A DNA stretch of 64,000 bases from a virus (Duplodnaviria > Heunggongvirae > Uroviricota > Caudoviricetes), in IMG/VR virus record IMGVR_UViG_2721755721_000001; one strand, written 5' to 3'. Position numbers and translations under genes: made by a program. This document shows, piece by piece, positions 31,264-64,000 of the stretch. Below the pieces are notes generated by a model that was not told the DNA's origin, searched no databases, and saw nothing but the letters and a program-made list of their open reading frames with translations. Position 1 is the first letter of the stretch; each line of letters opens with the position of its first letter.

Positions 31264-31470
31264 ATGGAAAAAATCACAACGGGTGTGTCATACACCACGT
31301 CAGCGGTGGGGACGGGATACTGGTTACTGCAGCTGCTGGACAAAGTCTCTCCGTCCCAGTGGGTGGCAATCGGTGTGCTGGGGAGTCTGCTGTTTGGCCT
31401 GCTGACGTATCTGACTAACCTTTATTTCAAGATTAAAGAAGATAAGCGTAAGGCGGCGCGGGGAGAGTAA
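31264..31470 (+). CDS. S: holin, phage 21 S-type (pinholin-like)
   Basis: 68 aa; [37 protein letters not shown] resembles S21 as recalled. Confidence 0.8.
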
Positions 31471-31474
31471 AGCG

Positions 31475-31819
31475 ATGAAGAAAAAATACGAACTGGTTGT
31501 TAAAGGGATAAATAATTACCCGGATAAGATTACTGTTACTGTGGCACTGGAAATTGGTGGGTATCCGTCACTGTTGTTGCCAAATGTGGCGATTAGTCTT
31601 GACCGTACTGAAGGTGCCACGCTGGAGTTTTACGAAGCGGAGGCGAAAAAGCAGGCGAAGCAGTTTTTCATGGATGTTGCTGCCGGGTTATGTGAAGGGG
31701 ATGGTCCGTTGCCGGAAAAGCGGCCCATCATTTTAGAGGCGCAGGATGTGTTGATAACCTACAGAGGAAAACTACCGGGAATAATTACTGGTTCTCTGAA
31801 GACTCCACCGCTGGCCTGA
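31475..31819 (+). CDS. DUF1327-like lysis-cassette protein
   Basis: 114-aa ORF between holin and endolysin; family assignment from memory. Confidence 0.45.
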   Translation: MKKKYELVVKGINNYPDKITVTVALEIGGYPSLLLPNVAISLDRTEGATLEFYEAEAKKQAKQFFMDVAAGLCEGDGPLPEKRPIILEAQDVLITYRGKLPGIITGSLKTPPLA

Positions 31820-31869
31820 AGACTTAACATATCCAGGGATTTGAAATCGATAAACCCTGATAAATATCC

Positions 31870-32403
31870 ATGAACACCAAAATCAAATACGGCCTGTCGG
31901 CTGCCGTTCTGGCGCTGATTGCCGCAGGTGCGCCTGCGCCTGAAATCCTCGACCAGTTTCTGGATGAAAAGGAAGGTAACCACACCACGGCATACCGTGA
32001 TGGCGCGGGTATCTGGACCATCTGCCGCGGTGCCATCCTGGTGGATGGTAAACCTGTCGTTCCGGGCATGAAGTTGTCGAAGGAAAAATGCGACCAGGTT
32101 AACGCCATTGAACGTGATAAGGCGCTGGCATGGGTGGAGAAAAACATCAAAGTGCCACTGACCGAACCCCAGAAAGCGGGGATCGCGTCATTCTGTCCGT
32201 ACAACATTGGTCCCGGTAAATGTTTCCCGTCGACGTTTTACAGACGAATTAATGCAGGTGATCGCAGGGGAGCGTGTGAGGCGATTCGCTGGTGGATTAA
32301 GGACGGTGGCAGAGACTGCCGTATTCGCTCAAATAACTGTTACGGTCAGGTATCCCGTCGCGACCAGGAGAGTGCGCTGGCGTGCTGGGGAATTGACAGA
32401 TAA
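31870..32403 (+). CDS. R: SAR endolysin (T4-lysozyme-like, signal-anchor-release type)
   Basis: 177 aa; N-terminal weakly hydrophobic SAR segment YGLSAAVLALIAAGAPA; lysozyme-like body. Confidence 0.8.
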   Translation: MNTKIKYGLSAAVLALIAAGAPAPEILDQFLDEKEGNHTTAYRDGAGIWTICRGAILVDGKPVVPGMKLSKEKCDQVNAIERDKALAWVEKNIKVPLTEPQKAGIASFCPYNIGPGKCFPSTFYRRINAGDRRGACEAIRWWIKDGGRDCRIRSNNCYGQVSRRDQESALACWGIDR

Positions 32404-32701
32404 GCAGAATATTTTGCTGAAAAATGCGGTTTGCTCACACGGACGGATAACACGAAATCCTGAGAACTGACAAAAACTAAGTGAATAAAAGTAAAAACCC
32501 CATTTGTTGGCTGCAAGCGGGGTTTTGTGTTTCCTGACTCCGGAAAAGTCAAAGGAGAAAGTGTGTTTGATTTTAGCAAACTGATTCGGGAGATTCGAGT
32601 GATGGCTGAAAAATTATCCACCTGGAAGTTCATCCTTATCTGGCTGGTGTTTGTGATTATGGCCTCCGGTTATTTCATCGGTCAGATACGCTGGTGGTGA
32701 A

Positions 32702-33196
32702 ATGAACCGCGTACTGTGCGTGGTCATCATTGCCCTGCTGGTGGCCTGTGGTGCGCTTAGTCTGGGGCTGAATCATTACCGTGATAACGCCATAACCTAC
32801 AAAGAGCAGCGCGATAAAAAAGTCAGTGAGCTGGAGCTGGCAAATGCAACCATTACTGATATGCAGCAGCGCCAGCGTGATGTTGCTGCACTTGATGCCA
32901 GATACTCGAGGGAATTAGCCGATGCGAGAGCTGAAAATGAAACTCTTCGCGCTGACGTTGCCGCTGGTCACCGCAGCCTGCGGATCAACGCCACCTGTCC
33001 AGGTCCCGTGCGTGAAGCCACCGGCACCGCCCGCGTGGATAATGCAACCGGCCCCCAACTGGCAGACACCGTTACACGGGATTATTTCACCCTCAGAGAG
33101 CGGCTGATGACGATGCAGAAGCAACTGGAAGGGGCACAGGACTATATCCGCACTCAGTGTACTAAGCAGGCTTTTTATTATCCGGAGGATGTATGA
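32702..33196 (+). CDS. Rz: Rz i-spanin
   Basis: 164 aa; N-terminal TM, coiled-coil periplasmic domain; Rz1 embedded in +1 frame. Confidence 0.8.
   Translation: MNRVLCVVIIALLVACGALSLGLNHYRDNAITYKEQRDKKVSELELANATITDMQQRQRDVAALDARYSRELADARAENETLRADVAAGHRSLRINATCPGPVREATGTARVDNATGPQLADTVTRDYFTLRERLMTMQKQLEGAQDYIRTQCTKQAFYYPEDV
32937..33107 (+). CDS. Rz1: Rz1 o-spanin lipoprotein embedded in Rz
   Basis: [15 protein letters not shown] lipoprotein signal; Pro-rich mature part; nested in Rz. Confidence 0.7.
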   Translation: MKLFALTLPLVTAACGSTPPVQVPCVKPPAPPAWIMQPAPNWQTPLHGIISPSESG

Positions 33197-33417
33197 AGAA
33201 ATTACAGGTAACGGTAAAACCTTTTCAGGGAACAATTCCGTTCCGTGTTTTGCAACATGGCCGTGTTCTGCTTGAAGAGGTGTTCAGAGGTAAATGCACT
33301 GAATGTTATTCACGAACATATGAAGTGAATGCCACGCATGAAGAATTCACCGTTGAGTGTGTGATGAATACTGATAAATGCCGAATGGTATCCGCTGAAT
33401 TACAGCCAGTGTGTTGA
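33193..33417 (+). CDS. hypothetical small Cys-containing protein downstream of Rz
   Basis: 74-aa ORF conserved in both lysis cassette copies. Confidence 0.45.
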   Translation: MKKLQVTVKPFQGTIPFRVLQHGRVLLEEVFRGKCTECYSRTYEVNATHEEFTVECVMNTDKCRMVSAELQPVC

Positions 33418-33776
33418 GCGACCTTATTATCCATGCGCGGTATTGTCGCCGTATTCCTGCATTAACAGAGACCGCAGCCCGACAGGGCGACTCCTCTGCG
33501 GGAGTGTGCGGGGATAATCAAAAACGATACACACCGGGGTTTACCGCGTAAACGGAGCGCGGCGTTCTCCCCTCATGGTCGCCCGTCCGGTGCGATGGTG
33601 GAAGAAACTGGAATCTGTTCAATAAAAAAAACTGCCGTGTTGGAGTCACAGCAGTAATGTACTGATTGGGTAGAAGATTATTATTGTTATGCTTTATTCT
33701 TATTCTATATGGCTGATTATTTGGTAACCGGCTCATTTAAACCGTCTGGTCTGTTTCCTCCGGCTCTACAAAAATA

Positions 33777-34454
33777 ATGTCCATCATTTTTAATGGACAC
33801 TATCGTATGAAACACCGGACCTGGATCACTGAAGCTTTACGTCTTCACTTTGAAGAACATTTACCCCGGGTTGTGGCCGGGCGTCGCCTGAGTGTACCAA
33901 AATCAACAGTTTGTAGTATGTTCGTGCGCTTTCGGAGAGCTGGCCTTTCGTGGCCTTTGCCCGCAGGCATGTCGGAGCAGGAACTTGATGCCTGCCTTTA
34001 CGGACAATTTTCCACGGTACCAGTCGTACGTCCTGAAAGCACCGTTATATCCGAAGCCCCCGTGGTAAAAAAACGTCCCCGGCGGCCCAACTTCCCTTAT
34101 GAGTTTAAAATCGCCTTAGTGGAGCAGTCACTACAGCCCGGAGCCTGTGTGGCGCAGATCGCCCGGGAAAACGGAATCAACGATAACCTGCTCTTCAACT
34201 GGCGCCATCAATACCGGAAAGGTGGCCTGCTGCCTTCCGGAAAAAATATGCCGGCACTGCTTCCCGTGACGTTAACGCCGGAGCCGGATAATAAAATCCC
34301 GGCCCCCGCACAGGAACCAGAGCAGATAAATACACCGTCCGACAGTCTGTGTTGTGAGCTGGTTCTGCCGGCCGGAACTCTCAGGCTTAAAGGTAAACTG
34401 ACGCCGGCGTTATTACAGACACTTATCCGCGAAATAAAAGGGAGCAGCCACTGA
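33777..34454 (+). CDS. IS66-family accessory protein (orfA-like)
   Basis: first ORF of IS66-type unit; start possibly at MKHRT (33807). Confidence 0.6.
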   Translation: MSIIFNGHYRMKHRTWITEALRLHFEEHLPRVVAGRRLSVPKSTVCSMFVRFRRAGLSWPLPAGMSEQELDACLYGQFSTVPVVRPESTVISEAPVVKKRPRRPNFPYEFKIALVEQSLQPGACVAQIARENGINDNLLFNWRHQYRKGGLLPSGKNMPALLPVTLTPEPDNKIPAPAQEPEQINTPSDSLCCELVLPAGTLRLKGKLTPALLQTLIREIKGSSH

Positions 34455-34801
34455 TGATATCTCTCCCTGCAGGTTCGCGTATCTGGCTGGTTGCAGGTAT
34501 CACCGATATGCGAAATGGCTTTAACGGCCTGGCATCAAAAGTTCAGAACGTCCTGAAGGATGACCCGTTCTCCGGACACCTGTTCATCTTCCGCGGACGC
34601 CGGGGTGACCAGATAAAAGTGTTGTGGGCTGACAGTGACGGACTGTGCCTCTTCACCAAACGCCTGGAGCGGGGCCGCTTCGTCTGGCCAGTCACCCGTG
34701 ACGGCAAGGTGCACCTTACTCCGGCTCAGTTATCCATGCTTCTTGAAGGTATCAACTGGAAGCACCCGAAACGAACGGAACGCGCTGGAATCCGCATATA
34801 A
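34454..34801 (+). CDS. IS66 Orf2-like protein (TnpB)
   Basis: 115 aa MISLPAGSRIWLVAGITDMRNGFNGLASKVQ..., characteristic IS66 orfB. Confidence 0.85.
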   Translation: MISLPAGSRIWLVAGITDMRNGFNGLASKVQNVLKDDPFSGHLFIFRGRRGDQIKVLWADSDGLCLFTKRLERGRFVWPVTRDGKVHLTPAQLSMLLEGINWKHPKRTERAGIRI

Positions 34802-34820
34802 CCCGTTGTAAAGTGAGGAT

Positions 34821-36392
34821 ATGGACACCTCACTTGCTCATGAGAACGCCCGCCTGCGGGCACTGTTGCAGACGCAACAGGACACCATCCGCCAGATGGC
34901 TGAATACAACCGCCTGCTCTCACAGCGGGTGGCGGCTTATGCTTCCGAAATCAACCGGCTGAAGGCGCTGGTTGCGAAACTGCAACGTATGCAGTTCGGT
35001 AAAAGCTCAGAAAAACTTCGTGCAAAAACCGAACGGCAGATACAGGAAGCACAGGAGCGAATCAGCGCACTTCAGGAAGAAATGGCGGAAACGCTGGGTG
35101 AGCAATATGACCCGGTACTGCCATCCGCCCTGCGCCAGTCTTCAGCCCGTAAACCGTTACCGGCCTCACTTCCCCGTGAAACCCGGGTTATCCGGCCGGA
35201 AGAGGAATGCTGTCCTGCCTGTGGTGGTGAACTCAGTTCTCTGGGATGTGATGTGTCAGAGCAACTGGAGCTTATCAGCAGCGCCTTTAAGGTTATCGAA
35301 ACACAACGTCCGAAACAGGCCTGTTGCCGGTGCGACCATATCGTGCAGGCACCAGTACCTTCAAAACCCATTGCACGCAGTTATGCCGGAGCGGGGCTTC
35401 TGGCCCATGTTGTCACCGGGAAATATGCAGACCATCTGCCGTTATACCGCCAGTCAGAAATATACCGTCGTCAGGGAGTGGAGCTGAGCCGTGCCACACT
35501 GGGGCGCTGGACAGGTGCTGTTGCTGAACTGCTGGAGCCGCTGTATGACGTCCTGCGCCAGTATGTGCTGATGCCCGGTAAAGTCCATGCTGATGATATC
35601 CCCGTCCCGGTCCAGGAGCCGGGCAGCGGTAAAACCCGGACAGCCCGGCTGTGGGTCTACGTCCGTGATGACCGTAACGCCGGTTCACAGATGCCCCCGG
35701 CGGTCTGGTTCGCGTACAGTCCGGACCGGAAAGGTATCCATCCACAAAATCACCTGGCCGGTTACAGCGGTGTGCTTCAGGCCGATGCTTACGGTGGTTA
35801 CCGGGCGTTATACGAATCCGGCAGAATAACGGAAGCCGCGTGTATGGCTCATGCCCGGAGAAAAATCCACGATGTGCATGCAAGAGCGCCCACCTACATC
35901 ACCACGGAAGCCCTGCAGCGTATCGGTGAACTGTATGCCATCGAGGCAGAGGTCCGGGGCTGTTCAGCAGAACAGCGTCTGGCGGCAAGAAAAGCCAGAG
36001 CCGCGCCACTGATGCAGTCACTGTATGACTGGATACAGCAACAGATGAAAACACTGTCGCGTCACTCAGATACGGCAAAAGCGTTCGCATACCTGCTGAA
36101 ACAGTGGGATGCACTGAACGTGTACTGCAGTAATGGCTGGGTGGAAATCGACAACAACATCGCAGAGAACGCCTTACGGGGAGTGGCCGTAGGCCGGAAA
36201 AACTGGATGTTCGCGGGTTCCGACAGCGGTGGTGAACATGCGGCGGTGTTGTACTCGCTGATCGGCACATGCCGTCTGAACAATGTGGAGCCAGAAAAGT
36301 GGCTGCGTTACGTCATTGAACATATCCAGGACTGGCCGGCAAACCGGGTACGCGATCTGTTGCCCTGGAAAGTTGATCTGAGCTCTCAGTAA
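34821..36392 (+). CDS. IS66-family transposase (TnpC)
   Basis: 523 aa; N-terminal leucine-zipper-like region, CPACGG zinc motif, conserved catalytic core. Confidence 0.85.
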
Positions 36393-36422
36393 ATATCAAT
36401 ACGGTTCTGACGAGTCGCTTAC

Positions 36423-36713
36423 ATTACTGTTACTGTGGCACTGGAAATTGGTGGGTATCCGTCACTGTTGTTGCCTGATGTGGCGATTAGTCTTGACCGT
36501 ACTGAAGGAGCCACGCTGGAGTTTTACGAAGCTGAGGCGAAAAAGCAGGCGAAGCAGTTTTTCATGGATGTTGCTGCCGGGTTATGTGAAGGGGATGGTC
36601 CGTTGCCGGAAAAGCGGCCCATCATTTTAGAGGCGCAGGATGTGTTGATAACCTACAGAGGAAAACTACCGGGAATAATTACTGGTTCTCTGAAGACTCC
36701 ACCGCTGGCCTGA
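36423..36713 (+). pseudogene. 5'-truncated second copy of DUF1327-like gene (starts at IS66 junction)
   Basis: sequence after the IS right end aligns with 31527 onward of copy 1; N-terminal 22 codons missing. Confidence 0.7.
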
Positions 36714-36763
36714 AGACTTAACATATCCAGGGATTTGAAATCGATAAACCCTGATAAATATCC

Positions 36764-37297
36764 ATGAACACCAAAATCAGATACGGCCTGTCGGCTGCCG
36801 TTCTGGCGCTGATTGCCGCAGGTGCGCCTGCGCCTGAAATCCTCGACCAGTTTCTGGATGAAAAGGAAGGTAACCACACCACGGCATACCGTGATGGCGC
36901 GGGTATCTGGACCATCTGCCGCGGTGCCATTCTGGTGGATAGTAAACCTGTCGTCCCGGGCATGAAGTTGTCGAAGGAGAAATGCGACCAGGTTAACGCC
37001 ATTGAACGTGATAAGGCGCTGGCATGGGTGGAGAAAAACATCAAAGTGCCACTGACCGAACCCCAGAAAGCGGGGATCGCGTCATTCTGTCCGTACAACA
37101 TTGGTCCCGGTAAGTGTTTCCCGTCGACGTTTTATAAACGAATTAATGCAGGTGATCGCAGGGGAGCGTGTGAGGCGATTCGCTGGTGGATTAAGGACGG
37201 TGGCAGAGACTGCCGTATTCGTTCAAACAACTGCTACGGTCAGGTATCCCGTCGTGACCAGGAGAGCGCGCTGGCGTGCTGGGGTATCGACAGATAA
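36764..37297 (+). CDS. R: SAR endolysin, second diverged copy
   Basis: 177 aa, about 98 percent identical to 31870-32403 product. Confidence 0.8.
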   Translation: MNTKIRYGLSAAVLALIAAGAPAPEILDQFLDEKEGNHTTAYRDGAGIWTICRGAILVDSKPVVPGMKLSKEKCDQVNAIERDKALAWVEKNIKVPLTEPQKAGIASFCPYNIGPGKCFPSTFYKRINAGDRRGACEAIRWWIKDGGRDCRIRSNNCYGQVSRRDQESALACWGIDR

Positions 37298-37778
37298 GCA
37301 GAATATTTTGCTGAAAAATAAAGCATGGCCACGCGGGCGGATAACATGAAATCCTGCGAACTGGCGAAACGTAAGTGAATAAAAGTAAAAACCCCGTTTG
37401 TTGGCACCAAGCGGGGTTTTGTGTTTCTGACCTTGAGTAAGGCAAGGGAGAACATGGCGAAGTATAAACGAATTCTGTTGAGGTTGACCATGAAAAACGG
37501 CCTTGAACTGAAAGCGCCTGTAACTGATGACATCAGCAGAGCACTGGCTTTTGCCATTAAGTGGGTGGCGGTCGGTGTTGCTGTGTCCCCGATGCTGTAT
37601 GGGCTGGCAAAACTGGTCATTGCGTTGAAATCGTGAAGGGAGGATTAAGCATGTCAGACAAACTCATAACGCTGGCGAAGATCCTCTGTGTAATTGTCGG
37701 CATTTCATTTTCACTAATGCTGGTTGCTCTTTTTCTTTCCATGGCCTGGATGATGTTGTCTTCGTCGGGGCTGCTGGG

Positions 37779-38279
37779 GTGAACATAAACCGAATGCTTT
37801 CCGCGTTTATCGTTATTCTGCTGGTGGCCTGTGGTGCGCTGTGGATGGCAACAGACCATTACCGTGATAACGCGATTACCTACAAAGCGCAGCGCGATAA
37901 CAAAGCCAGTGAACTGAAGCTGGCGAACGCAACCATTACTGATATGCAGGTGCGCCAGCGCGATGTTGCTGCGCTCGATGCAAAATACTCGAGGGAATTA
38001 GCCGATGCGAGAGCTGAAAATGAAACTCTTCGCGCTGACGTTGCCGCTGGTCGTAAGCGCCTGCGGATCAACGCCACCTGTCCAGGCTCCGTGCGTGAAG
38101 CCCCCACCACCTCCGGCGTGGATAATGCAACCGGCCCCCGACTGGCAGACACCGCTGAACGGGATTATTTCATCCTCAGAGAACGGTTGATGACAATGCA
38201 GAAGCAGCTGGAAGGGGCGCAGGAATATATCCGCACTCAGTGCACTAAGCTGGCTTTTTATTATCCGGAGGATATATGA
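37779..38279 (+). CDS. Rz: Rz i-spanin, second copy (diverged N-terminus)
   Basis: 166 aa; C-terminal two thirds near-identical to copy 1, N-terminus differs. Confidence 0.75.
38020..38190 (+). CDS. Rz1: Rz1 o-spanin, second copy
   Basis: [15 protein letters not shown] lipoprotein signal, embedded in Rz copy 2. Confidence 0.7.
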
Positions 38280-38500
38280 AGAAATTACTGGTAACCGTAA
38301 AGCCTTTTCAGGGAACAATTCTGTTCCGTATTTTGCAGCGTGGTCGTGTTCTTGTTGAAGGTTCGTTCAGTGGTAAATGTACGCAATTACACTCCCGGAC
38401 CTTTCAGGTGAATGCCACGAATGAAGAGCTAACCGTTGAGTGTACGATGAATGCCGCTAAATGCCGCATGGTATCCGCTGCATTACAGCCAGTGTGTTGA
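38276..38500 (+). CDS. hypothetical small Cys-containing protein, second copy
   Basis: homolog of 33193-33417 product. Confidence 0.45.
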
Positions 38501-38823
38501 GCGACCTTATTATCCATGCGCGGTATTGTCGCCGTATTCCCGCATTAACAGAGACCGCAGCCCGACCGGGAGACTCCTCTTCGCGAGTGTGCGGGGATAA
38601 TCAAAAACGATACACACCGGGGTTTACCGCGTTAACGGAGCGCGGCGTTGCCCCTCATAGTCGCCTGTCCGGTGCGATGGTGGAAGAAGCCGGACGATGT
38701 GTTACCTCGCAAGCCCTGTTATGTGTCTGATTTGTGATTTAAGTCGGATAATTGTCGTTGCCATCAAGCAGAGGATTGATGACCGACAGGGTGGCATTGT
38801 TAGAATAAGACTTATTCTTATCT

Positions 38824-39165
38824 GTGCCGGGAATGAAAATGAAAAGAAATCTTCCGTTAATTATTTTGTTGTCTTCTCTGGTTATGGGCTGTACGCAACA
38901 TAAAACAGATATGCCCCGACAATTGGTGAAGGCATTACCACAATATCCGGCCTATGCAGCGGCAAATTATATAAAGGGACGGGTTGATGTGAAGTTTGAT
39001 ATTGGTGCTGATGGTACTGTCACCCGAATTGAGTTTATCCGTTCAGAGCCGCACCATCTGTTTGATGAGCAGGTTGTAAAGGCGATGGCAAAATGGCGAT
39101 TTGAGAAGGACAGGCCGCGTAAAGGCGTGAAGAAAACGTTTATCTTTAGTCCTTCTGCACCCTGA
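38824..39165 (+). CDS. lipoprotein consisting of a TonB C-terminal-like domain (in bor position)
   Basis: lipobox LVMGC; PQYPAYAAANYIKGRVDVKFDIGADGTVTRIEFIRSEPHHLFDEQVVKAMAKWRFE parallels the E. coli TonB C-terminal domain as recalled. Confidence 0.65.
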   Translation: MPGMKMKRNLPLIILLSSLVMGCTQHKTDMPRQLVKALPQYPAYAAANYIKGRVDVKFDIGADGTVTRIEFIRSEPHHLFDEQVVKAMAKWRFEKDRPRKGVKKTFIFSPSAP

Positions 39166-57146: not shown

Positions 57147-57381
57147 AAAGAATAAAAAAATCCCGCAGAGTTGCGGAACTGAGGGAGCGTTACGAAGATT
57201 AAGTGTAAGGAATTATTCTTATGTCACGACAAAAAACATTAACGCAGAGAAATTATTAGCACCACAGTCAGTTTGTAAAAATGTGAAGATATTCAGAAGT
57301 TTTATTCAGTGATGATACAGGCATCCTCAGGGATGCCTGTTGTTTTTGTGCGTAACAGTTATCACAGTAAAGGGTGAGACA

Positions 57382-60300
57382 ATGGGCAAAGGTGGCGGCA
57401 AGGCGCACACACCGCGCGAGGCGAAGGACAATCTCAAATCCACGCAGATGATGAGTGTGATTGATGCGATTGGTGAGGGACCGATAGAAGGCCCGGTGAA
57501 AGGCCTGCAGAGTATTCTGGTGAACAAAACCCCGCTGACGGACACGGACGGTAATCCCGTGATACACGGTGTGACGGCGGTCTGGCGCGCCGGGGAGCAG
57601 GAGCAGACACCACCGGAAGGCTTTGAGTCCTCCGGAGCTGAAACCGGACTGGGCGTGGAAGTGACGAAGGCAAAACCGGTGACGCGCACCATTACGTCTG
57701 CGAACATTGACCGCCTGCGGGTTACCTTCGGGGTGCAGTCACTGGTGCAGACCACGTCAAAGGGCGACCGTAATCCTTCCTCTGTCCGGATTCTGATTCA
57801 GTTACAGCGTAATGGCCGCTGGGTGACGGAAAAGGACGTCACCATTAACGGCAAGACCACCTCACAGTTCCTGGCCTCGGTGATTCTGGAGAATCTGCCT
57901 CCCCGGCCCTTTAACATCCGGATGGTCAGGGAGACGGCGGACAGCACCACGGACCAGCTGCAGAATAAGACGCTCTGGTCGTCATACACCGAAATCATCG
58001 ATGTGAAACAGTGCTACCCGAACACGGCCATTGTGGGGCTGCAGGTGGATGCGGAGCAGTTCGGCGGCCAGCAGATGACGGTGAACTACCATATCCGCGG
58101 TCGCATCATTCAGGTACCGTCAAACTATGACCCGGAAAAACGCACGTACAGCGGCATCTGGGACGGCAGCCTGAAACCGGCATACAGCAACAACCCGGCC
58201 TGGTGCCTGTGGGACATGCTGACTCACCCGCGCTACGGCATGGGAAAACGCCTGGGGGCCGCGGATGTGGACAAGTGGGCGCTGTATGCCATCGGGCAGT
58301 ACTGTGACCAGCGTGTCCCGGACGGCTTCGGAGGGACAGAGCCGCGGATGACCTTTAATGCGTACCTGTCACAACAGCGTAAGGCGTGGGACGTTCTCAG
58401 TGATTTCTGCTCGGCGATGCGCTGTATGCCGGTATGGAACGGCCAGACGCTGACGTTCGTTCAGGACCGCCCGTCGGATGTGGTGTGGCCGTACACCAAC
58501 AGCGATGTGGTGGTGGATGATAACGGCGTGGGGTTCCGCTACAGCTTCAGCGCCCTGAAGGACCGCCACACGGCGGTGGAGGTGAATTACACCGACCCGC
58601 AGAACGGCTGGCAGACCTCCACGGAACTGGTGGAAGACCCGGAAGCCATACTGCGCTACGGGCGCAACCTGCTGAAGATGGATGCGTTCGGTTGCACCAG
58701 TCGCGGTCAGGCCCACCGTGCCGGGCTGTGGGTGATAAAGACCGGACTGCTGGAAACGCAGACGGTGGATTTCACGCTCGGGTCACAGGGGCTGCGTCAC
58801 ACACCCGGTGACATTATTGAAATCTGTGATAACGACTATGCCGGGACCATGACCGGCGGACGTATCCTGTCCATCGATGCCGCCAGCCGCACCCTGACAC
58901 TGGACCGTGAGGTGACCCTGCCGGAGACCGGTGCCGCCACGGTGAACCTGATTAACGGCAGCGGTAAGCCGGTGAGTGTGGACATCACCGCACACCCCGC
59001 GCCGGACCGGATACAGGTCAGCACCCTGCCTGATGGTGTGGAGACATACGGTGTATGGGGACTATCCCTGCCGTCACTGCGCCGTCGCCTGTTCCGCTGT
59101 GTCTCCGTCCGGGAAAACACGGACGGCACCTTTGCCATCACGGCGGTGCAGCACGTACCGGAAAAAGAAGCCATCGTGGATAACGGTGCCCGCTTTGAGC
59201 CGCAGTCAGGCACCCTGAACAGCGTCATCCCTCCGGCAGGTGCAGCACCTGACGGTGGAGGTGAGCGCAGCTGACGGCCAGTATCTGGCGCAGGTGAAAT
59301 GGGACACGCCGCGGGTGGTGAAGGGCGTGCGCTTCAGTCTGCGCCTGACCAGTGGAAGCGGTCAGGACAGCCGTCTGGTGACCACCGCCATCACCGCGGA
59401 TACAGAGCACCGTTTCAGCGGTCTGCCGCCGGGGGAATACACCCTGACGGTCAGGGCGATTAACAGTTATGGCCAGCAGGGGGAACCGGCCACCACCACG
59501 TTCAGGATTAATGCACCTGCGGTACCCGCCACGATTGAGCTGACACCGGGCTATTTTCAGATAACAGCGGTCCCGCGTCTTGCGGTGTATGACCCGACGG
59601 TACAGTTTGAGTTCTGGTTTTCGGAGACAAAAATCGCAGATACATCTCAGGTGGAAACCTCTGCCCGTTATCTGGGGACCGGCAGTCAGTGGAGTGTATC
59701 CGGCCCGCACATTAAGCCCGGGAAGGATTTCTGGTTTTACGTGCGCAGCGTCAACCTGGTGGGGAAATCTGCTTTTGTGGAAGCCAGTGGCCGGGCCAGC
59801 AATGATGCAGAAGGGTATCTGGGGCTGTTTCGGGAAAAAATAGGAAAACTGCATCTGGCTCAGGGGCTGTGGGAGCTGATAGACAACAGCCAGCTTGCGG
59901 ATGAGATGGCGGAGATGAAGACCACCATCACAGAAACCCGCAATGAAATCACGCAGACGGTCAGTAAAACCCTGGAAGACCAGAGTGCCACCATACAGCA
60001 GATACAGCGGGTGCAGACAGACACAAATAACGACCTGGCTGCGCTGTATATGCTGAAGGTGCAGAAAACGAAAAACGGCATTCCGTATGTTGCCGGTATA
60101 GGTGCGGGGATTGAGGATGCTGATGGCCAGCCCCTGAGCAATATTCTGCTGCAGGCAGACCGTATCGCGATGATTAACCCGGAGGACGGCAACAGCACGC
60201 CGTTATTTGTGGCGCAGGGGAATCAGTTGTTCATGAACGATGTGTTCCTGAAGCGGCTGTTTGCGGTGAGTATCACCTCGTCCGGCAATCCCCCGACGTT

Positions 60301-60856
60301 TTCCCTGACGCCGGAGGGCAGGCTGACCGCAAGAAATGCTGATATCAGCGGTAACGTGAATGCGAATTCCGGGACGCTCAACAACGTCACGATTAACGAG
60401 AACTGTCGGGTTCTGGGAAAACTGTCCGCGAACCAGATTGAAGGCGATCTCGTTAAAACAGTGGGCAAAGCTTTCCCCCGGGATTCCCGTGCACCGGAGC
60501 GGTGGCCATCAGGGACCATTACCGTCAGGGTTTATGACGATCAGCCGTTTGACCGGCAAATTGTTATTCCGGCGGTGGCATTCAGCGGCGCTAAACATGA
60601 GAGAGAGCATACTGATATTTACTCCTCATGCCGTCTGATAGTGCGGAAAAACGGTGCTGAAATTTATAACCGTACCGCGCTGGATAATACGCTGATTTAC
60701 AGTGGCGTTATTGATATGCCTGCCGGTCACGGTCACATGACGCTGGAGTTTTCGGTGTCAGCATGGCTGGTAAATGACTGGTATCCCACAGCAAGTATCA
60801 GCGATTTGCTGGTTGTGGTGATGAAGAAAGCCACCGCAGGCATCAGTATCAGCTGA
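57382..60856 (+). pseudogene. J: host specificity protein J, split by a frameshift near 59238
   Basis: two ORFs (57382-59274 and 59240-60856) in different frames together span a lambda J homolog; frames switch at CCGGCAGGTGCAG. Confidence 0.75.
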
Positions 60857-63377: not shown

Positions 63378-64000
63378 GTAATGCTGCCAACTTACTGATT
63401 TAGTGTATGATGGTGATTTTAAGGTGCTTGCGTGGCTTCCATTTCCATCAGATGTCCTTCCTGCTCCGCTACTGAAGGCGTGGTGCGTAACGGCAAAAGC
63501 ACTGCCGGACATCAGCGCTATCTCTGCTCTCATTGCCGTAAAACATGGCAACTACAGTTCACTTACACCGCCTCTCAGCCCGGTACGCACCAGAAAATCA
63601 TTGATATGGCCATGAATGGCGTCGGATGTCGCGCCAGTGCACGCATTATGGGCGTTGGCCTCAACACGGTTTTACGTCACTTAAAAAACTCAGGCCGCAG
63701 TCGGTAACCTCGCGCATACAACCGGGCAGTGATGTGATTGTCTGCGCTGAAATGGGCGAACAGTGGGGCTACGTCGGTGCTAAATCACGTCATCGCTGGC
63801 TGTTTTACGCGTATGACAGGATACGGAGGACGGTTGTGGCGCACGTCTTCGGTGAACGCACTCTGGCCACACTGGAGCGTCTTCTGAGCCTGCTGTCGGC
63901 CTTTGAGGTCGTGGTATGGATGACGGATGGCTGGCCGCTGTATGAATCACGCCTGAAGGGAAAGCTGCACGTTATCAGCAAGCGTTACACTCAGCGCATT
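63378..64000 (+). mobile_element. IS1-family insertion sequence, left part (continues past window end)
   Basis: left end GTAATGCTGCCAACTTACTGATTTAGTGTATGATGGTG matches the IS1 terminal repeat as recalled; insA followed by insB-like frame. Confidence 0.9.
63432..63707 (+). CDS. insA: IS1 InsA
   Basis: 91 aa [45 protein letters not shown]..., about 95 percent identical to InsA as recalled. Confidence 0.9.

Follow-up and report, generated by a model that had tools for sequence, protein, structure and literature searches.

What does a prophage do with a lipoprotein whose mature part is, apart from a short linker, the C-terminal domain of TonB? The question is raised by a gene at positions 38839..39165 (plus strand, stop codon included) in a stretch of 64,000 nucleotides of viral DNA from the class Caudoviricetes (IMG/VR record IMGVR_UViG_2721755721_000001), which is called the window below. 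A preliminary description of this DNA had proposed that a membrane-tethered TonB C-terminal domain could bind the TonB boxes of outer-membrane transporters and block the TonB-dependent uptake of superinfecting phages or colicins. In this work, the resemblance to TonB is found to lie far beyond chance. The reading that we favour, tentatively and with slightly less than even confidence, is that the protein would act as an outer-membrane-tethered TonB decoy which gives the lysogen tolerance to TonB-dependent colicins and phages.

The open reading frame (ORF) from which the earlier proposal started, 38824-39165 on the plus strand, is present, but its GTG at 38824 is only the beginning of the longest possible frame, and the start codon is likely the ATG at 38839, which gives a protein of 108 amino acids (aa). 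This start is favoured because an RBS-like (ribosome-binding-site-like) GGGAA at 38829-33 precedes it, because the RefSeq entry for identical Escherichia coli DNA (WP_000828070.1, ‘TonB family protein’) begins there, and because it aligns with the start codon of the 71%-identical phage 21 allele, which has a clear AGGA ribosome-binding site. The coding sequence (CDS) so delimited is supported by the ORF itself, the RefSeq entry, Pfam and NCBIfam TonB_C matches and substitution rates. Its first part (38839..38892, plus strand) reads as a lipoprotein signal peptide with an MKR n-region, a hydrophobic core and the lipobox L-V-M-G-C, the feature that had first marked the product as a lipoprotein. 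The protein begins with MKRNLPLIILLSSLVMG, followed by the lipidation cysteine, Cys18 (38890-38892), and LVMG|C fits the PROSITE-type pattern for bacterial lipoproteins. The residue at position +2 after the cysteine is threonine, so that the Lol rule predicts sorting to the outer membrane; processing of the 108-aa lipoprotein and its outer-membrane localisation are expected from these signals. A linker of seven residues, TQHKTDM (38893..38913, plus strand), joins the lipidated cysteine to the domain, as placed by residue mapping with P26 equivalent to P153 of TonB.

The TonB C-terminal domain itself occupies residues 26-105 (38914..39153, plus strand), which correspond to residues 153-232 of E. 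coli TonB according to profiles, phmmer, structure prediction and alignment. Specifically, Pfam TonB_C (PF03544) matches with an E-value of 5.5e-15 and 56 bits against a gathering score of 24.6, and TIGR01352 (tonB_Cterm) with an E-value of 2.6e-15 and 56.5 bits against a cut-off of 27.1; in the Pfam scan of the lipoprotein, TonB_C and TonB_2 were the only families found. A phmmer search of the PDB returned a gapless match to E. coli TonB 153-231 with an E-value of about 3e-16 (1u07, 2gsk, 2grx), and residues 26-108 align without a gap to TonB 153-235, with 31 of 83 positions identical (37%). The motif-by-motif parallel with TonB drawn in the preliminary description is thus borne out by both profiles, by phmmer and by the alignment. 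The N-terminal transmembrane anchor and the proline-rich spacer of TonB are missing: residues 1-18 form the lipoprotein signal and residues 26-108 match TonB 153-235, so that an isolated, complete C-terminal domain stands behind a lipoprotein signal, as had been claimed. The TonB equivalog models (NCBIfam PRK10819) align at positions ~152-240 only, and their scores of 49-73 bits lie far below the cut-offs of 265-448. By these scores, and because anchor and spacer are absent, the protein is classed as a member of the TonB_C domain family and not as a TonB energy transducer.

Structure prediction leads to the same domain. An AlphaFold2 (AF2) model built from an alignment of 25 diverse relatives reached a mean predicted local distance difference test (pLDDT) score of 86.6, and superseded a poor model (pLDDT 56) obtained from a six-sequence alignment. 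The model has the alpha/beta fold with a three-stranded sheet that is typical of the TonB C-terminus, and Foldseek aligned it to TonB in complex with BtuB (2gsk_B) with a target-normalised template modelling score of 0.92 and a root-mean-square deviation of 1.1 A. Both the alignment and the structure prediction that had been suggested as checks on the original idea therefore find a TonB C-terminal domain. The lipoprotein retains the YP motif, F180, G186, F202, W213, P220, G223 and F230 of TonB, has a conservative change of Y215 to F, and carries a more basic beta3 strand.

Two alleles of the gene circulate in E. coli. The window allele and the phage 21 allele have CDS that are 73% identical, with a synonymous divergence (dS) of 1.3 and a ratio of nonsynonymous to synonymous substitution rates (dN/dS) of 0.14; for the domain part alone, the same pair gives 0.12. 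The gene is, on this comparison, real and under purifying selection. Of 5426 complete E. coli genomes, 417 have the window allele, in each case chromosomally, and 1225, UTI89 among them, have the second, phage 21-type allele, so that the two together are carried by roughly a quarter, up to ~30%, of E. coli genomes. Additionally, the window allele occurs in Shiga toxin 1a (Stx1a)-converting phages, JLK-2012 and Lys8385Vzw, and the second allele in phage 21, ev017, Perceval and several induced ECOR phages. Databases call the protein ‘partial tonB-like membrane protein encoded within prophage CP-933N’, ‘TonB fragment’ and, in the phage 21 record, ‘TonB C-terminal domain protein’; full-text literature searches found no published functional study of the gene. 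It has thus already been annotated as TonB-like, and it is apparently the architecture and the likely decoy role that have never been studied.

Several independent frameshifts near codons 88-100 were observed among proteins of the phage 21 type (P0010, P0012, P0013, P0015, P0018, P0019 and P0021), and one frameshifted cluster comprises 130 member sequences. These frameshifts replace the last beta strand, which in TonB is the strand that pairs with the Ton box. Possible causes are the decay of cryptic prophages, errors of assembly and selection against an active protein.

The gene belongs to a wider family of lipoproteins with a TonB_C domain. An exhaustive profile-free search recovered many relatives of ~108-116 aa that share 34-49% identity, and a distance tree separates them, as a clade of their own, from the C-termini of true enterobacterial TonB. 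The lipobox is a family character: 25 of 27 members match the strict pattern, none has aspartate at position +2, and the cysteine is nearly invariant in the alignment. The distance from this cysteine to the conserved proline of the YP motif is 16-24 residues in the relatives. The most conserved part of the family is an amphipathic helix corresponding to TonB 198-216, with 62% pairwise identity. Relatives lie directly behind the lysis genes in Rahnella and Sodalis prophages with lambda-type terminases, and likewise in a Klebsiella phage and a Salmonella phage-plasmid, so that the slot next to the lysis genes recurs in phages of E. coli, Rahnella, Sodalis, Klebsiella and Salmonella with different terminases. 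Other relatives were found on 96 plasmid records, one of them adjoining a QatABCD defence system, and one copy of the Pantoea type (L018) adjoins an integrase remnant and a colicin locus. A genome scan with the Pantoea-type alignment returned only six loci.

Two neighbours of these relatives deserve mention. At L018:3208-4290 (minus strand) lies the gene of a 360-aa pore-forming colicin-like protein with a glycine-rich N-terminus and the TolB box GDGTGWSSE, together with a likely immunity gene. At the P0181 locus, a connection with a TonB-dependent bacteriocin was considered and rejected, since the TolB box of the neighbouring colicin, GDGTGWSSE, makes it Tol-dependent. Directly downstream of the plasmid TonB_C lipoprotein gene in Klebsiella and Pantoea plasmids, a 213-aa predicted lipoprotein (…LTLSGC…) is encoded (L024:6811-7452 and L022:6811-7452), for which no Pfam match was found.

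The relatives also share a regulatory signal. Candidate Fur boxes were scored against the consensus GATAATGATAATCATTATC over 19 positions, and in many relatives a site matching 14-17/19 lies 11-17 nt ahead of the start codon, where it overlaps a -10-like hexamer. The best matches (17/19) belong to a Sodalis prophage and the P0181 locus, followed by Pantoea agglomerans and an Erwinia-like chromosome (16/19), Erwinia S63 and the Salmonella phage-plasmid (15/19) and three further Pantoea loci (14/19). Sites reaching at least 16/19 in 186 kb of surrounding sequence are all these upstream boxes, and the box stays while the flanks differ among locus groups; the loci are partly related by descent and hence are not independent counts. 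Candidate boxes stand at a constant distance before the genes, within 11-29 nt upstream of the start codons, at L008, L018, L004, L019, L013, L023, L009, L012 and L015. The family appears to be tied to the iron/TonB regulon, to which the window copy itself may not belong. Such boxes imply that the relatives would be expressed along with TonB-dependent receptors when iron is low and the cell is at its most exposed.

In the window, a promoter-like site was found by consensus scan at 38779..38806 (plus strand), with ATGACC, a 16-nt spacer, TAGAAT and an upstream TG that makes an extended -10. The extended -10, TGTTAGAAT at 38798-38806, is kept in both alleles, and TTGT(T/C)AGAATAAGAC is conserved between these alleles with 73%-identical CDS; the site is a candidate promoter. 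No canonical terminator was found at the gene, which lies on the late strand and would be read through from the late promoter in any case. Between the -10 and the ribosome-binding site, a perfect palindrome, AGAATAAG-A-CTTATTCT, spans 38802..38818 (plus strand) at the position where relatives have the Fur box. It was considered as a Fur box but is at best a doubtful candidate, with a score of only 13/19 and a different, for Fur wrong, half-site spacing. The palindrome is absent from the phage 21 allele, where the Fur match is 10/19.

A second line of comparison comes from TolA. Colicins and several phages must reach one of two hubs in the periplasm, the C-terminal domain of TonB for group-B colicins and that of TolA for group-A colicins. 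A Pantoea dispersa plasmid encodes, at a distance of 5 kb from a TonB_C lipoprotein gene, a 144-aa ‘TolA’ that consists of a lipobox (LITAC) and the TolA C-terminal domain (TolA-CTD) only (Pfam TolA, E-value 5e-24). TolA-CTD lipoproteins were found on 745 plasmid records, mostly of Klebsiella, and on at least eight Klebsiella and Pantoea plasmids they lie 3-5 kb from a TonB_C lipoprotein. In the lambdoid phage mEp460_ev081, the interval from Q to the lysis genes holds a version that is 34% identical and likewise has a lipobox; the TolA-CTD loci covered in these plasmids and this phage are L024:676-1110, L026:4989-5417 and L025. No Fur box was found upstream of the TolA-CTD lipoproteins. The occurrence of both domains as lipid-anchored, stand-alone forms on mobile elements argues for a shared decoy logic. 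Between the two genes on the plasmids, a DUF1778/GNAT toxin-antitoxin pair and an insertion sequence (IS) were observed.

In the window, downstream of an IS66-family element come a truncated YdfR gene, the lysozyme gene (36764-37297), Rz (37779-38279) with the embedded proline-rich lipoprotein Rz1 (38005-38190), a 74-aa ORF and a conserved segment of ~200 nt; the TonB_C lipoprotein gene follows, and then YlcI/YnfO on the opposite strand, an HNH endonuclease gene and the terminase. The conserved segment (38483..38690, plus strand), delimited by repeat comparison and phage records, is lambdoid backbone that forms the left border of the insert and lies outside the gene. It is near-identical to 33400-33607 behind a first lysis cassette in the same window, the similarity stops at ~38690, and no TonB_C gene stands behind that first cassette, which gives a with-and-without comparison inside the window. 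Similarly, the backbone part 38530-38700 occurs in 398 phage records, lambda included, of which only 15 phage records carry the gene, and the gene has a GC content of 44% against 52-58% in its flanks. An insert behind a conserved backbone, with deviant GC and a with-and-without pattern, is what a moron would show, and the earlier naming of the gene as one is supported. The preliminary description had also placed it where lambda carries bor. This holds for the region between the lysis genes and cos or the terminase, but not for the strand: the TonB_C gene lies on the late-gene strand and bor on the opposite one. Phage 21 carries both, bor on the opposite strand and the TonB_C gene further downstream on the late strand.

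The ~200-nt non-coding backbone segment is more conserved than the adjoining genes and contains GC-rich inverted repeats. A structured RNA or a small ORF in it was considered and set aside, as there was no Rfam match at E-values up to 1 and the frame of the ORF annotated in phage 21 is not conserved.

A role in self-exclusion through the phage's own receptor was also considered. The C-terminal domain of the host-specificity protein J is of the lambda-J type in this prophage (47% identical to lambda), and Lys8385Vzw combines the same TonB_C allele with a J domain that is only 62% identical. Self-exclusion was rejected because the same allele occurs with different J domains, and the gene is, by this comparison, uncoupled from the phage's own receptor-binding domain. 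PADLOC returned no match to known defence-system proteins.

The favoured reading can now be set out in full. Signal-peptidase II processing and Lol sorting would place the lipoprotein on the inner leaflet of the outer membrane, where, on a linker of ~7 residues, it would display to the periplasm a complete but energy-uncoupled TonB C-terminal domain. Ton-box strands would be captured there by beta-strand pairing instead of by real TonB; they could belong to outer-membrane transporters, while capture may be more efficient for group-B colicins and other invaders that have to reach the scarce real TonB. The TonB-energised import step would then not occur, which would give the lysogen tolerance to colicins, microcins and phages (T1/phi80-like) that depend on TonB, as a form of lysogenic conversion or exclusion. 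Location, expression in the lysogen, Ton-box binding and phenotype are all predictions from sequence in this scheme. It is favoured because the mature protein corresponds exactly to the structured TonB core observed in the complexes with BtuB and FhuA, because the lipobox, the lack of aspartate at +2 and the short linkers are family-wide, and because this is a selected mobile accessory gene, found in accessory and defence regions and unlinked to its own J. The Fur boxes of the relatives and the parallel TolA-CTD lipoproteins point the same way and give the plausible mechanism a better frame. There is also a laboratory precedent that counts in its favour: when a periplasmic TonB domain is overexpressed in E. 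coli, iron import via TonB-dependent transporters is reportedly inhibited (Howard et al. 2001, cited in PMC9841981).

Several observations weigh against the decoy. The segments that contact the Ton box are the least conserved of the family, with 35% pairwise identity for 153-162 and 25% for beta3 (224-232), and in the window protein the TonB positions Q160, R166 and R158 are replaced by L, Y and K. Some members are plain chromosomal genes in Pantoea and Erwinia without a mobile context. The Fur match is weak in the window allele and none is seen in phage 21, and the promoter scan gave 2 sites in the region against 1.7 expected from shuffled sequence, which is not significant alone. In vivo inhibition by laboratory TonB fragments is reportedly length-dependent, and a minimal domain may inhibit poorly. 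Finally, a TonB inhibitor derepressed through Fur would be costly, as iron uptake would fall at the very time of iron shortage. TonB molecules are few compared with the transporters, and for this reason a moderately abundant outer-membrane decoy may catch the few Ton boxes of arriving colicins better than it would block bulk siderophore transport; such a preference would reconcile protection with Fur-controlled expression.

The same evidence can be read in other ways. The first is that the protein is a positive or modulatory factor of iron uptake, a Fur-regulated outer-membrane lipoprotein that docks the TonB C-terminus, a periplasmic binding protein or, like FusB, a substrate near the transporters and thereby improves TonB-dependent import, so that phage carriage would help the lysogen in iron-poor habitats. 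We regard this as rather unlikely, although it makes good use of the strong, positionally fixed Fur boxes in chromosomal as well as prophage relatives, of the stable chromosomal members in Pantoea and Erwinia outside any mobile context, and of a conserved family surface that is the helix and not the Ton-box-pairing strand. TonB paralogues with specialised partners do exist, for instance FusB with ferredoxin (9hi3, which is among the fold-search matches). However, a protein that lacks the energy-coupling part is unable to transduce energy, the neighbourhoods hold no iron-uptake genes, and the Fur box of the E. coli phage alleles is weak or missing. The TolA-CTD lipoproteins on the same elements, which have no Fur box and no obvious nutrient role, also speak against it.

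A second way is to see the target in TonB itself. Pairing between the anchored domain and the C-terminus of the host's own TonB would then hold TonB back at the outer membrane, which we consider unlikely. TonB C-terminal fragments dimerise in crystals through beta-strand pairing, and such fragment crystals (1u07, 1ihr) are among the closest matches of the lipoprotein; sequestering the scarce TonB would, moreover, be stoichiometrically cheap. The helix that is most conserved in the family also fits, as a preprint (10.1101/2022.09.26.509584) describes the corresponding TonB helix 198-216 as indispensable throughout the energy cycle. Such a trap would carry the maximal cost to iron uptake, which fits poorly with Fur-derepressed expression.

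A third is an envelope lipoprotein unrelated to transport, whose fold binds peptidoglycan or another wall component and alters serum or stress resistance in the manner of Bor/Iss. It would suit a predicted outer-membrane lipoprotein from the same moron-rich region as bor, with a fold that is common to TolA domain III, and peptidoglycan affinity has been proposed for the TonB C-terminus. We nevertheless hold it to be quite unlikely: phage 21 already has bor beside the TonB_C gene, the Fur boxes point to iron physiology, and the closest similarity is specifically to enterobacterial TonB, with the core aromatics kept.

The annotation of the gene as a lysis protein can be given very little credit. 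PHROG 1267, ‘Rz-like spanin’, matches the lipoprotein over its full length (E-value 1.9e-42), and the gene stands behind a lysis cassette; yet this cassette has its own Rz with an embedded Rz1, phage 21 has separately annotated i- and o-spanins, and on chromosomes and plasmids relatives are found with no lysis genes around them. A mis-annotation by position is the most likely origin of the label, and a lysis accessory protein or spanin is a highly improbable identity. A functionless, decaying fragment of a captured tonB, which the names ‘partial tonB-like’ and ‘TonB fragment’ and the several frameshifted copies of the second allele might suggest, is barely credible in view of a dN/dS of 0.14 with saturated dS, an acquired lipoprotein signal conserved across genera, a clade apart from true TonB and intact copies in up to 1225 genomes.

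The remaining observations concern the prophage as a whole. Two near-identical lysis cassettes (holin, YdfR, lysozyme, Rz/Rz1 and the 74-aa ORF) lie within 31264-38500 of the window: the first at 31264-33417 and the second, in which the YdfR gene is cut at its 5' end, at 36435-38500. The TonB_C gene is found behind the second only. Between them lies the IS66-family element, with tnpA at 33777-34454, tnpB at 34454-34801 and tnpC at 34821-36392, and the arrangement suggests that two lambdoid prophages were joined by way of the IS. J, the host-specificity gene of the tail tip, is broken into two ORFs that overlap (57340-59274 and 59240-60856), which suggests a frameshift; together with the IS insertion, this makes the prophage probably defective. 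An ORF at 63432-63707, which we take to resemble InsA of IS1, would place a further IS at the window's right end.

What would follow if the decoy reading is true reaches beyond this prophage. TonB-dependent transporters are main routes of entry for colicins, microcins, siderophore-antibiotic conjugates and many phages, and the carriers of the gene include Stx1-converting phages, a prophage of uropathogenic E. coli (UTI89) and the classical phage 21. The gene would then bear on host range in phage therapy, on competition by bacteriocins within the gut and on how susceptible cells are to ‘Trojan horse’ antibiotics, and it would stand for a new logic of lysogenic conversion in which a host domain is copied to jam the host import machine. 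With less confidence than in the TonB decoy itself, we consider it possible that mobile elements of Enterobacterales carry an unrecognised class of envelope decoys, outer-membrane-tethered TonB and TolA C-terminal domains that would intercept, right beneath the outer membrane, the Ton- and Tol-binding segments of incoming colicins and phage proteins. Such a class would provide general, receptor-independent exclusion and colicin tolerance, distinct from receptor blocking by Cor and Llp, and its TonB version would be iron-regulated through Fur in many lineages. The Fur boxes and the TolA-domain lipoproteins make the decoy idea directly testable by simple plating and uptake assays.

Among known systems, the nearest in structure is the C-terminal domain of E. 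coli TonB itself (residues ~150-239; 1u07, 2gsk, 2grx), which has the same fold and length without insertions or deletions. In contrast to TonB, the prophage protein has a lipoprotein signal in place of anchor and spacer and therefore no link to ExbB-ExbD and the proton-motive force. Laboratory periplasmic TonB fragments (Howard, Herrmann, Stratilo & Braun 2001, J Bacteriol 183:5885, as cited in PMC9841981) likewise present an uncoupled periplasmic or C-terminal part of TonB in the periplasm; those are soluble, overexpressed constructs, whereas the gene described here encodes a natural, lipid-anchored minimal domain on a mobile element.

Among phage proteins, Cor (phi80, N15, HK022) and Llp (T5) are small outer-membrane lipoproteins that act periplasmically on the TonB-dependent transporter FhuA to exclude phages (10.64898/2026.03.26.714494; PMC11436027), and a 2024 review of superinfection exclusion mentions TonB only with Cor and FhuA (PMC11436027). 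The TonB_C lipoprotein is like them in being small and phage-encoded, with exclusion as the proposed outcome. No similarity to Cor or Llp turned up in Pfam or in the BFVD viral fold search (no match with E <1e-3), neither of which was directed at these two proteins. Each of the two blocks a single receptor, usually the phage's own, whereas the TonB_C gene is unlinked to J and its product would act on the shared TonB step. Bor/Iss of lambda is likewise an outer-membrane lipoprotein moron between the lysis genes and cos, but it is a different protein encoded on the opposite strand, and since bor and the TonB_C gene coexist in phage 21, the latter is not a replacement of bor. The closest counterpart in design is offered by the TolA-CTD lipoproteins of plasmids and of mEp460_ev081: they belong to a different domain family (Pfam TolA) and have no Fur box, but they show the same combination of a lipobox, a short linker and a lone transducer C-terminal domain, and they too are carried by mobile elements.

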